A stretch of DNA of 64,000 bases from Candidatus Saccharimonadota bacterium. Its GTDB lineage: Bacteria > Patescibacteriota > Saccharimonadia > Saccharimonadales > AWTP1-31. A program made the translations under genes and the position numbers. The DNA is taken from NCBI GenBank assembly GCA_003962975.1, contig RXKC01000014.1, positions 898 to 64,897 on the forward strand, written 5' to 3'. This document shows, in pieces, positions 23,205-26,881 of this stretch; the stretch's first letter is position 1, and each line of letters begins with the position of its first letter. Below the pieces are notes generated by a model that saw only the letters and a program-made list of their open reading frames with translations, was not told where the DNA came from and did not search any database.

Positions 23205-23303
23205 GTTTGTTTCCTAGTTTTAACAGGATTACTCTCATCGTACGCTTTGTGCTTATGCTGTCAAGTAGCTTTTGTTTAGCAGTGGCTAGTATATACTTAA
23301 AGC

Positions 23304-24776
23304 ATGTCAAAAACTCAGACTCTTGGGTATGAGCATTGGTACGAGATGTACCTTCTCAAAGATCAATTAGAAGCCGAATCCTGGAAGGGAATTGTTATTG
23401 GTCTTTCTCAGTACATTGGCTTCCTCAAGACATGGCGTCTTATTGTCGCAATCGAAAAGAACACGATCCGATATTACATAGGGACTAACAAAGATGTAGG
23501 TACGCTCTCTAATAACCTTGAGGGTGTTGTACTCCGACCGGTGGACCACAAAGAGGTCAGACTACCCAAGCAATACTCAAGCCAGCGCTTTATTCAGTAT
23601 GTGACGGGCGGTACGTTTCTAGATCTAAAGGAAAAATACCAGGTTAAACGAAGTATTGAGCTTGAATATATAGATTTAGTTATTCGAACTATAAATGTTG
23701 AGAAAGCGCACGTTAAAGCGGGGCTGTACTTCAAGAATAAGGCTGGCGCTTATAGTGTTGCGCGCAAGACAATCTTGACCATCCCCAATAATCAGCTGGC
23801 TGTTGATTTCATTACGAACACAAAGTATATGCGAAAGAAACAGCCTAAATACCTTGATATCCAAAAAGCATTACATATTATGCAAAGCGACAATGTTAAT
23901 GCAGTATTCGAAGTTGATACGTTTCCGTTTCGTCCCACAAACTACTTTTTACCTTTGACAGCATATGATTTCGAAAAGCACTCATTCATTATTGGAGCTA
24001 GTGGCAGTGGTAAATCTAAGCTGATCAGTCTTATTATTGACCGGTTAAGCAAGTCGGGTGGTCTGCAGCAAAATTATCGAGTTGTGGTCATTGATCCTCA
24101 TGCGTCTCTAGAACATGATCTTGCTGCTATACCTAAAACAAAAATTGTAAGCTTTAAGGGTGAAGATGAAGCTACCGAGTTATTCGGTGGTGCGGGCACG
24201 GACGTATCAGCCGCAACTGAACTGACAGGCACTTTATTTAAATCTTTGCTTGGCGATCAGTTTAATCCCAAACTAGAACGAACATTACGTTACTGTTTAT
24301 ATGTTCTCATGACCGCGCAAGCAATGAGCTTGAGCAACTTAAAACGCTTTGTCGATGATCTCGAGTATCGAAACAAAGTACTGAATCACGTCAAAGAACA
24401 TGTACCAGATAACATTATTGGTTTCTTTGGTGGCGACTTTAATGAAATGCGCACCAAGTACTACAATGAAGCGCTTGTACCAATCATTACACTCGTAGAT
24501 GAAATGCAGATGCAACCCTCTCTCGCAAAAACCGGAGATGAAGGCGCATCGCTTTCGAAACTAGTAAACAATAACTTCTTGACCGTATTCTCTCTCAACA
24601 AAGTCAGTATGGGTGAAAAGGTTGTTAAAACCGTTGCTGGCTTGTTAATACAGCAAATATTTCTCCTTGCACAGGCAAGAGCCTTCAACGAAAAAGTGCT
24701 CCTTATCATTGACGAAGTATCAGTCGTACAAAATCCAGCACTTGCTAGCATTCTTGCTGAAGCAAGGAAGTATAAT
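23304..24776 (+). pseudogene. FtsK/HerA/type-IV-coupling-protein-like P-loop ATPase, N-terminal 491 codons, interrupted by the IS
   Basis: Walker [10 protein letters not shown] and Walker B LLIIDEVS. The reading frame runs into IS sequence after ...ILAEARKYN and ends in IS-derived codons. Confidence 0.75.
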
Positions 24777-25355
24777 CCCGGCGCGACTTTCCCCGACCGT
24801 CAGGTCGGGGCTGTAAAGCCCCGCTAGCTTCTGTTCGTCCGGGCGTTGCCAAGCTTCCGGTATGTACGCCATACTCTCATGCATGAAGTATCGACGAATG
24901 GATCATGCGGTTTTCTACTGTGACTACCATCTTGTGTGGCCGACTAAGTACCGACGTAAAGTCCTGAATGAGGGTGTACGGGTGTTTTTGGTCGGCTGGC
25001 TCAAAGAGTTGGAAGAGCACAGACCCGACATCATCGTCAAGACAATCAACACTGATCTGGATCACATTCACATTCATGTCTCTATTCCTCCAAGTCAGTC
25101 GGTCGGGTCTGTGGTTCGTCTATTGAAGTCCAACTCAGCCAAGGCACTGAACCAAAAATTCCCGTTCTTGCGTACCACCTACTGGGGGACCCGCTCTGTC
25201 TGGTCGGCCGGGTACTTTTGCTCCACAATTGGAGTGAATGAATCTACCATTCGTCGATACATCGAAAACCAAGGTAAGGAAGAAGCTGGCCAAAACAACC
25301 TGGAGTTGTTTTGAAGCAGCTAATTCCCCGAGCGTAAGCTCGTGGGAAGTTTAAT
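24777..25355 (+). mobile_element. IS200/IS605-family insertion sequence (tnpA only), about 579 bp
   Basis: Sub-terminal hairpins with related sequence sit at both ends: CCCCGACC-gtca-GGTCGGGG (24791-24810) and CCCCGAGC-gtaa-GCTCGtGGG (25326-25346). The left flank GGAAGTATAATC (24766-24777) resembles the right end GGAAGTTTAATC (25345-25356). Removing 579 bp (3 x 193) rejoins the host ORF in frame. The exact junctions are ambiguous within the 12-nt similarity. Confidence 0.8.
24862..25314 (+). CDS. tnpA: IS200/IS605-family Y1 (HUH) transposase TnpA
   Basis: YHLVWPTKYRRKVL, an HUH motif (DHIHIHVSIPP) and a C-terminal catalytic Tyr region (GYFCSTIG...IRRYIENQ). The start may be the ATG at 24883. 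Confidence 0.9.
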   Translation: MYAILSCMKYRRMDHAVFYCDYHLVWPTKYRRKVLNEGVRVFLVGWLKELEEHRPDIIVKTINTDLDHIHIHVSIPPSQSVGSVVRLLKSNSAKALNQKFPFLRTTYWGTRSVWSAGYFCSTIGVNESTIRRYIENQGKEEAGQNNLELF

Positions 25356-26189
25356 CTTTTCGTATTCTTAACGCAGCAATATTTTGGGCAAATTGAGAAG
25401 CCACTACAAGACGCCATATTCACGAATATTTACAACTATTACGTATTCAGGGTATCTGAAGAGGATGCACGGTCACTTGAAGGCAATCTAACGCTTGAGA
25501 TTCCAAAAGAAATTCTCGAAGCCGAAAAAGCCAAAGGCCTTAAACAGTCAGATGTTCGTGTACAGATGCTTACAAACCTTAATACTAGAGAGCTTTACCT
25601 TCGCTTAAGCAGCGAAGGGCAGATACTGCCTTGTGTTAAAGCTAAGACGCTGAACATTGGAAGTCCGAAAAAAATTCTTGATGAAGAATTAAAAGCTTAC
25701 AATGTACCATCTCAGAATCTTCCTGAGAGATTTGACGAGCTTGCTGCTACAACATCCGTAAAATCCTTTGATTCACTACCTCAGTCGAGTGCAAATTCAT
25801 TCGCAACTCCTGGTTTTCCTTCAATTAATAAAGCCGATAGCATCTCAAGGATCACCAGCGGGAATGCAATCAATGGCATGCCTGCGCAACAACCAAGCGC
25901 TGAAGATATAGCCATGGCAGCAAAGTTCGAACAAGGTGCGGACACGCTACCACACACACCAAGCACAAAAGACATAAAGAGCGCTGGTAAGTCGGCCATA
26001 CTAGCAACCGTAGACAATAGGCCACTCCCTAACCAAGACAAGGTAAAGACTGAACTTCAGCAAGTTATGGCTAATACGTTTAAAAAATTCAATGATGTTC
26101 CTGCCGATTCTAATGTCGGTAAAAACCTCCAAGACATATTAGCAAGTCAGTCATCAAGCAGGTTCAAGATTAAACGGAAAGGTAAGTAG
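25356..26189 (+). pseudogene. C-terminal 277 codons of the interrupted P-loop ATPase
   Basis: The frame is open from 25338 and continues the ATPase core (LFVFLTQQYFGQI...NYYVFRVSEEDARSL). A low-complexity S/P/A/N/Q tail follows. The ORF track only shows it from an internal Met at 25566. Confidence 0.7.
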
Positions 26190-26881
26190 TGGACTCAAAA
26201 AAAGCCAAGGAAGTTCTAGATAAAATTGTAGGCCAGGTATTTGGGTTTCAGAATCCGCTTAGTCTTGAAGAAGCGCTTCAAAAATTTGCCTTCGACGTTA
26301 AGCTTCCCCAGCAAGTATTCGACCTATCTGGCAAGCCTACTTGGGCACAGTCTACCAACCCAACAAAGTTTATTACCTTCCTCGATGCGCTCAATATGCC
26401 TGAAGGTCATTACACTCGACCAGCACGTCAGTTGAACGATATCGAAGATATTCTTAGTGCCTGGGCCGAGATTAACGAAATGGCCACAGAGCGCGTGCTA
26501 GAGTCCTTGAACGTTGCAGAATCAGACTGCGTATATAACTCTGAAGATGTCTACAGAAGTCAAACGGTTAACCGTGCCAAGAATGTACTTTTCAGCGATA
26601 CAATATCAGACGCTGAATTTATTTTGGCAAGCCAGAGATCGGAAGCGTCTACCTTCTGTATTAGATTAGAAGACAGCGCGAAGTGCTCTAATAGCTTCAA
26701 TGTACAGTGGTGTAACAGCATCATCAACTGTTTCTTTATTTCTGACGCTAACACACTCCAAGACTGCATGTTTACCTCGCATATGAACAACAAACGCTTT
26801 ATGGTCGCCAATATGCAGTACGACGAGGCAGAGTATATGCGTCTACGCGATATTGTGGCTCGCTGGATATTAACAGGGTAA
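26189..26881 (+). CDS. Hypothetical protein (230 aa) with a Cys-rich repetitive C-terminal half
   Basis: A GTG start overlaps the ATPase stop (TAGTG). The C-terminal half shows a periodic S/D/N...C pattern (SDCVYNSEDV...FCIRLEDSAKCSNSFNVQWCNSIINCFFISDANTLQDCMF). I recognise no family. Confidence 0.55.
   Translation: MDSKKAKEVLDKIVGQVFGFQNPLSLEEALQKFAFDVKLPQQVFDLSGKPTWAQSTNPTKFITFLDALNMPEGHYTRPARQLNDIEDILSAWAEINEMATERVLESLNVAESDCVYNSEDVYRSQTVNRAKNVLFSDTISDAEFILASQRSEASTFCIRLEDSAKCSNSFNVQWCNSIINCFFISDANTLQDCMFTSHMNNKRFMVANMQYDEAEYMRLRDIVARWILTG

Follow-up and report, generated by a model that had tools for sequence, protein, structure and literature searches.

Positions 23304-26189 of the window, by which we mean the whole 64,000-nt stretch of a Candidatus Saccharibacteria metagenome-assembled genome (MAG) in which all coordinates are given here, hold a gene for a conserved ATPase that is divided into two parts by a 579-bp insertion sequence (IS) of the IS200/IS605 family. 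The N-terminal open reading frame (ORF; 23304-24827, + strand) runs to ...ILAEARKYN and then reads through 16 codons of the insert before it stops. When 23304-24776 is joined in silico to 25356-26189, 768 codons read through with no stop but the terminal one, and the junction of this ORF is ...ILAEARKYN/LFVFLTQQYFGQ... (here and below a slash marks the junction), which bears out the claim of an earlier note, made from the letters of the window, that the element splits the ATPase precisely and that its deletion restores 768 codons. At 51%, the GC content of the insert exceeds that of the ATPase gene (41%) and that of the window as a whole (46%). From these observations, together with the empty-site and copy data presented below, we conclude that an autonomous IS200-group element of 579 bp has almost certainly been inserted very recently into this conserved, single-copy gene of the HerA/FtsK superfamily. 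The insertion cuts the ATPase off after Walker B, with loss of the conserved RKYN-LFVFLTQQ segment, and it probably also disturbs the expression of the overlapping 230-aa downstream gene through a polar effect.

The NCBI records list three proteins at the locus, of 507 aa (RTK93721.1, 'DUF87 domain-containing protein', which includes the 16 read-through codons), 150 aa (the transposase) and 207 aa (RTK93723.1, a hypothetical protein whose entry covers only 25566-26189 of the C-terminal part), as would be expected if the two ATPase parts were natively separate genes, or a naturally split gene, with a transposase merely lying between them. That arrangement we consider practically impossible. The restored protein as query has 1429 homologues, and the full-length ones among those listed are single proteins of about 650-800 aa, with identities of 57-75%, from MAGs of Saccharibacteria and other Patescibacteria. 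An alignment with 13 full-length orthologues shows ILAEARK[Y/F]N-LFVFLTQQYFGQ at the junction without interruption and with very little variation, and all 13 are unbroken across it, with the pattern ARK[Y/F]N-L-[FYT]-[VI]-[FI]-LTQQ, the type of junction that the earlier note had predicted as ARK[Y/F]N-LFVFLTQQ. No start codon is available to the C-terminal part at the junction, and the uninterrupted allele, which encodes an identical 768-aa protein (P0242), is identical in nucleotide sequence to the window flanks. The orthologues, P0242 and the empty-site contigs thus refute natively separate halves, an arrangement that the earlier note had named as fatal to its own proposal if orthologues showed it. 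A single gene thus underlies the two fragments RTK93721.1 and RTK93723.1, and a disrupted-gene flag is due in the annotation. The features of the locus are collected in Table 1.

Table 1. Features of the interrupted ATPase gene, the inserted element and the partner gene
Feature	Position	Strand	Description
ATPase N-terminal part, 491 codons	23304..24776	+	Walker A GASGSGKS, Walker B LLIIDE; Pfam DUF87 E=1.5e-8
Target / left cleavage motif TATAAT	24771..24776	+	Tyr-Asn codons TAT AAT of ARKYN; kept in left flank, unduplicated
tnpA-only IS200-group element, 579 bp	24777..25355	+	Absent from empty-site contigs; identical copies in L097 and L098
Left-end structure	24787..24818	+	Putative guide CTTT 24787-24790, hairpin 24791-24810, 3' flank CTGT-AAAG; conserved in related element
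Candidate tnpA promoter TTGCCA-18 nt-CATACT	24846..24875	+	Predicted only; CATACT kept in relative
tnpA, 143-aa Y1 HUH transposase	24883..25314	+	HUH = H61-I-H63, catalytic Tyr126, Gln130
Right-end hairpin	25324..25348	+	TTCCCCGAGC-GTAA-GCTCG(T)GGGAA, 10 bp, one bulged T; putative guide (T)AATT before it
Right cleavage motif TTTAAT, last 6 nt of element	25350..25355	+	Homology of copies ends exactly here, flanks then differ
ATPase C-terminal part, 277 codons + stop	25356..26189	+	Without start codon of its own
Partner gene, 230 aa	26189..26881	+	GTG start overlaps ATPase stop; conserved pair

Filled and empty alleles

We located the uninterrupted allele through the 90%-identity protein cluster of the N-terminal ATPase fragment. 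One cluster member, P0242 (768 aa), is identical to the restored ORF at 768/768 residues and is encoded on two Logan contigs, L095 (SRR35571890, 3051 bp) and L096 (SRR12901021, 3042 bp), both of which align to window positions 23249-26878 minus 24777-25355 with 0 mismatches over 3051 and 3042 bp, respectively. The empty-site junction is ...GGAAGTATAAT/CTTTTCG..., the filled and the empty allele differ by exactly 579 bp, and TATAAT occurs once in the empty site, with no target duplication. The empty site has TATAAT and not TTTAAT, and therefore the copy in the left flank is the original target whereas TTTAAT is part of the element. A third run likewise contains the filled right junction, on a Logan contig (L099, SRR7877888) that matches over 4237/4237 nt and ends inside the IS. 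Because the same strain background is found with and without the element and the flanks show zero divergence, the event must be very recent, and the suggestion of a young disruption made in the earlier note is strongly supported by the mismatch-free flanks of L095 and L096.

From ORF restoration alone the boundary of the element would be ambiguous within a shared TAATC. The boundaries at 24777 and 25355, which had also been proposed in the earlier note, are nevertheless exact because they are fixed by the other copies of the element together with the empty site. The filled allele is a natural knockout with a wild-type counterpart in the same strain background and could be useful for studying the ATPase.

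The element, its ends and its target

The element is laid out as a left end (LE) of 106 bp, a tnpA gene of 432 bp and a right end (RE) of 41 bp, so that 147 nt in total are non-coding, and tnpA is the single ORF; neither tnpB nor iscB is present in the 579 bp. The transposase is matched by Pfam PF01797 (E=2.6e-31) and by the NCBIfam model NF033573 transpos_IS200 (116 bits, where 55 is the cutoff; E=9e-34), and it can be aligned over its full length to the TnpA structures of IS608, ISDra2 and Sulfolobus with the HUH, Tyr and Gln residues in register, H61/H63, Y126 and Q130 corresponding to H64/H66, Y127 and Q131 of IS608. The NCBI annotation of tnpA (RTK93722.1, 150 aa) starts at 24862; relatives start at the MKYRR methionine. 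The candidate promoter ends 7 nt upstream of the ATG at 24883, there is no Shine-Dalgarno sequence, and the arrangement of these signals suggests that the tnpA mRNA may be leaderless.

Both of the related sub-terminal hairpins described in the earlier note are present. The LE hairpin (24791-24810) has a perfect 8-bp stem, CCCCGACC-GTCA-GGTCGGGG, and lies on the same strand as the RE hairpin, to which it is related by a 22-nt direct (not inverted) repeat of 82% identity. The pattern common to the two hairpins occurs twice in the 64 kb, where shuffled sequences predict 0 occurrences, and their folding as single-stranded DNA is better than that of shuffles (z = -2.3 for LE and -3.6 for RE). Between the left cleavage motif and the LE hairpin, which follows it, there are 14 nt; the right motif comes 7-9 nt after the RE hairpin, depending on how the terminal A-T pairs of the predicted stem are counted. 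A second perfect hairpin, GGGGCT-GTAA-AGCCCC (24807-24822), overlaps the 3' arm of the LE hairpin, such that the two are mutually exclusive; in IS608, too, the LE contains a second, small hairpin, whose function is minor (PMC5934647).

A further structure was seen within tnpA, namely a 17-nt inverted repeat (24885-24901 / 25247-25263; 16/17 complementary, 14 perfect) that connects the start-codon region (KYRRMD) with the catalytic-Tyr region (TIRRYIE). Among the relatives, only the closest one, the sister element of 78% identity described below, has kept it. As a regulatory structure it was rejected, being absent in relatives of 36-56% identity and broken without compensation in a degraded sister-element copy (L011).

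The length of the insert, 579 = 193 x 3, is a multiple of three, and one might ask whether it is removed at the RNA or protein level, in the manner of an IStron, an intron or an intein, so that the ATPase remains functional. IStrons combine IS200/IS605 genes with group I introns (PMC4227781). No Rfam match was obtained in 24600-25500 even at E<=1, and so neither a ribozyme nor the IS200 5' untranslated region (5'-UTR) family is detected there; for the same reason there is no sign of an RNA of the IS200 5'-UTR type. The 147 non-coding nucleotides leave no room for a group I ribozyme, a stop is reached 16 codons into the element, intein motifs are missing, and the ORF is a canonical transposase. 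We therefore give removal at the RNA or protein level next to no chance.

The search for other copies, by which the earlier note had hoped to define the ends and the target, places the ends at 24777 and 25355 and the target at TATAAT. Two more full-length copies with 0 differences over 579 bp were found at unrelated sites in other metagenomes, one (L097) within an ORF with F5/8-type-C domains, again at Tyr-Asn codons, and the other (L098, on the same contig as L100) adjoining an HsdM-type methylase gene. A contig-end copy (L102) shows 0 differences over the 121 bases present, and a truncated variant (L101) is 91% identical. The left flank is TATAAT at 5/5 sites of this IS. A sister element of about 578 bp (TnpA P0121; L001-L010), with 78% DNA identity and 90% TnpA identity, occupies at least six different sites, its left flanks being TATAAT in 5/6 and GATAAT in 1/6, and its right end, ...GGGAAGTTTAAT, is the same throughout, with sequence beyond it that varies. 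In the window, 21 TATAAT sites are available, of which only one carries an IS copy. A search for plasmids with the IS in distant mode gave no match. Orthologues have AAGTATAAC, AAGTACAAT or AAATATAAC as codons at the target position, and in the window lineage the TATAAT target was created through synonymous codon choice. The right end had also been said to mimic the left target flank (GGAAGTATAAT against GGAAGTTTAAT), and a 12-nt repeat, GGAAGTATAATC / GGAAGTTTAATC, is indeed found at a spacing of 579 across the element. The TATAAT/TTTAAT part of this likeness is systematic, but the GGAAG part is absent at the other sites and is a coincidence.

It should be noted as a separate matter that TATAAT is also the sigma-70 -10 consensus. 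Two insertion sites of the sister element resemble complete promoters, with cTTGTCA-N16-TATAAT/ (L007/L008) and TTGCTA-N16-TATAAT/ (L002), the element beginning directly downstream of the -10 box.

Every testable defining feature of the IS200/IS605 family is found in the element, in agreement with its original assignment. Members of this family insert into single-stranded DNA on the 3' side of a defined tetra- or pentanucleotide, which remains in the left flank. Their transposase recognizes hairpins on the top strand, and the cleavage sites are read by pairing with a guide that precedes the hairpin foot on its 5' side; excision yields a single-stranded circle and reseals the donor precisely, and for insertion the lagging-strand template is preferred (PMC5934647, PMC5027513). 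We infer the steps for the window element from this established biochemistry. Specifically, TnpA would bind the sub-terminal hairpins on the top (+) strand and cleave 3' of TATAAT on the left and 3' of TTTAAT on the right. The element would then leave as a single-stranded circle, the RE-LE junction of which would read ...GGGAAGTTTAAT/CCCGGCGCGACTTT..., and would reinsert directly after a TATAAT in single-stranded DNA, leaving the target unduplicated. Of the large ORFs, 35/45 lie on the + strand, which is the top strand of the element, and by analogy with the family this orientation would be consistent with the preference for the lagging-strand template. The target specificity, the absence of duplication, the hairpins and the intact HUH/Tyr/Gln transposase all fit peel-and-paste single-strand transposition.

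Several points weigh against a recent insertion by an active element as the full account of the locus. The left junction is seen in the window alone, and the target, at 6 nt, is longer than the 4-5 nt of characterised family members. TT stands directly 5' of both hairpins and AA is present in both TATAAT and TTTAAT, but the guide-like pairing between them is no more than probable. The candidate tnpA promoter matches the consensus at 9/12 positions, no better than expected from shuffles, and the activity of the transposon is deduced from comparison of sequences. Moreover, since elements of the family leave no scar when they are excised, the empty allele may be the ancestral state or may have arisen from the filled one by precise excision.

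The first of these points also bears on whether the insertion might be an artefact of assembly or binning, with a repeat collapsed into the wrong place of the MAG. IS copies often break or mis-join metagenome assemblies, and contig L099 itself ends inside the IS. We hold such an artefact to be extremely improbable, however. The left junction follows TATAAT and the right one the element's constant TTTAAT terminus, both as is typical of the family, and what stands between them is a single 579-bp copy, complete and without extra sequence. A chimera is unlikely to respect both the target and the exact terminus, and the right junction recurs at 100% identity in an independent Logan assembly. A genuine and very recent insertion remains the reading that we adopt.

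Because excision in the family reseals the donor precisely, the disruption is reversible in principle, and this raises the question of whether insertion and excision have been selected as a means of turning the ATPase and its partner gene on and off (phase variation) rather than being a neutral or deleterious accident. Filled and empty alleles do occur in different samples with zero flanking divergence, excision in the family is seamless (PMC5934647), and the ATPase is highly conserved, with 60-75% identity across Saccharibacteria. Against this, only one filled lineage was observed, recurrent insertion at the site was not seen in other lineages, and the same IS is found in unrelated genes and at intergenic sites, as a simple TATAAT preference predicts. 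A selected switch is thus very unlikely in our judgement. In a more far-reaching form, the 579-bp element would be the smallest IS with direct evidence of current mobility, or its seamless insertion and excision at the TATAAT of the Tyr-Asn codons would be a reversible switch for a core Saccharibacteria operon encoding a HerA-like ATPase; we think this unlikely. A related thought is that an element with TATAAT as its target would systematically come to lie directly behind sigma-70 -10 boxes, and its expression or effects could thereby be coupled to host promoters.

Comparison with known and related elements

A close parallel is with IS200 of Salmonella and other Enterobacteriaceae, the prototype of the IS200 group, which likewise has tnpA only, encoding a Y1 HUH transposase of about 145-150 aa, no terminal inverted repeats, no target duplication and a structured left end upstream of tnpA. 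The window element is 18% shorter, at 579 against 707 bp (PMC4513863), and its left end measures 106 bp against about 160 bp in IS200. Unlike IS200, the window element, in its patescibacterial host, has no recognisable Shine-Dalgarno sequence and no stem that could sequester one. The transposase is homologous to that of IS608 of Helicobacter pylori (E=3e-19 to 2a6m/2vhg) and to that of ISDra2 of Deinococcus radiodurans (E=4e-15 to 2xm3). As in IS608 and ISDra2, left cleavage is 5' of the LE hairpin, right cleavage is 3' of an RE hairpin that contains a bulged T, and insertion is 3' of a fixed short motif kept in the left flank; in contrast to them, the window element lacks tnpB, has shorter distances between cleavage sites and hairpins, and uses TATAAT rather than TTAC or TTGAT as its target.

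IS200, at 707 bp, has been called the smallest fully autonomous IS known (PMC4513863), and the earlier note had judged 579 bp unusually compact for an autonomous element. This holds in relation to IS200, but the compactness is not unique. Chryseobacterium antibioticum carries at least five identical IS200-type copies (L041-L046) that share about 588 bp, or about 582 bp without the 6-nt TTTAAT flank, and two copies in Chryseobacterium sp. ERMR1:04 (L035-L036) share about 594 bp, for an element of about 590 bp; IS200-type copies in Lachnospiraceae share about 675 bp. The ISfinder range for the IS200 group is about 600-750 bp. A length of about 580 bp is therefore at the low end of the group without being unique to the window element. 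The C. antibioticum element, whose TnpA is 36% identical to that of the window and whose left flank is TTTAAT, is similar to the window element, as is the P0121 element, in being compact and tnpA-only, with A/T-rich hexanucleotide left flanks and GC-rich hairpins at both ends. For the P0121-type element, the status of a sister IS or of an isoform in its own right seems the most fitting. The window element is a further, very compact member of the IS200 group, and the event itself is ordinary biology.

The current understanding of the IS200/IS605 family is unchanged by these findings. What they provide is a clean natural case of IS200/IS605 insertion in the little-studied Patescibacteria, with exact ends, a six-base target, no duplication and both alleles from public data. 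The element might be of use as a minimal transposon model, or for marking strains in populations of Saccharibacteria, and the compact Chryseobacterium elements, with their cultivable hosts, could be experimental models.

Decayed or multiplied relatives were also encountered. In the Patescibacteria MAG Prado157 a copy of the sister element (L011, 1-584) is decaying, with in-frame stops (VKYR*MD... and ...NN*QLF, the asterisk being the stop). An internally deleted remnant of a related IS, about 180-190 bp long (L068, 1470-1670; L067, 590-790), lies between genes in a Saccharibacteria MAG; what is left of it is an LE-like start, about 100 nt from the 3' end of tnpA and a degenerate RE. The identical sequence recurs on a contig assigned to 'Dechloromonas', probably through misbinning. 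In the Patescibacteria MAG JTS-RE358 (L014, L071-L076) an IS200-type transposase gene of 52-67% identity is present once in full and at least six more times as a fragment at a contig end, which suggests that this gene is present at high copy number and fragments the assembly.

The interrupted ATPase and its partner gene

The earlier note had labelled the ATPase as of FtsK/HerA/coupling-protein type, and at the superfamily level this label stands. Pfam recognises DUF87, the HerA central domain (34.7 bits against a cutoff of 23.2), and TrwB_AAD_bind (30.7 bits). An AlphaFold model built from 50 homologues has a mean predicted local distance difference test score (pLDDT) of 70 with a confident core of residues 1-600; it was used in place of an earlier model from 14 sequences (pLDDT 50), which was too poor for use. 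Foldseek searches with the 50-homologue model return HerA, DndH, VirB4 and TrwB (E=1e-12 to 1e-8, probability 1.00). Searches of the PDB with the ATPase sequence, single or as a profile, gave only marginal matches to the HerA Walker A region, and identity to any solved structure is only 12-17%. The likeness consists in the Walker A and Walker B motifs, the P-loop core of the additional strand, catalytic E (ASCE) class and the HerA/FtsK-type fold, and the ATPase is a member of the HerA/FtsK/VirB4/TrwB superfamily. Distinctive is a confidently modelled N-terminal domain of about 165 residues, together with a disordered, variable linker and a disordered C-terminal tail that ends in a conserved NLQDLLASQSSSRKK motif.

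The coupling-protein part of the label holds no further than the superfamily. Coupling-protein and VirB4 models score far under their cutoffs (TIGR03743 TraD, 24 against 366 bits; VirB4, 23 against 643 bits), and the neighbours of the ATPase are gatCAB, purA, uvrB and the 230-aa ORF, with no type IV secretion system, NurA or Sir2 locus. The ATPase thus shows neither the full-length match nor the type IV secretion or relaxase neighbours that would be expected of a type IV secretion coupling protein (VirD4/TrwB/TraD). A paper on Saccharibacteria genetics (PMC10633639) contains nothing on this ATPase, and a Pfam scan of the 230-aa partner gave no match. The pair formed by the ATPase and an ORF of 230-232 aa is kept at all of the relatives' loci examined (L091-L096).

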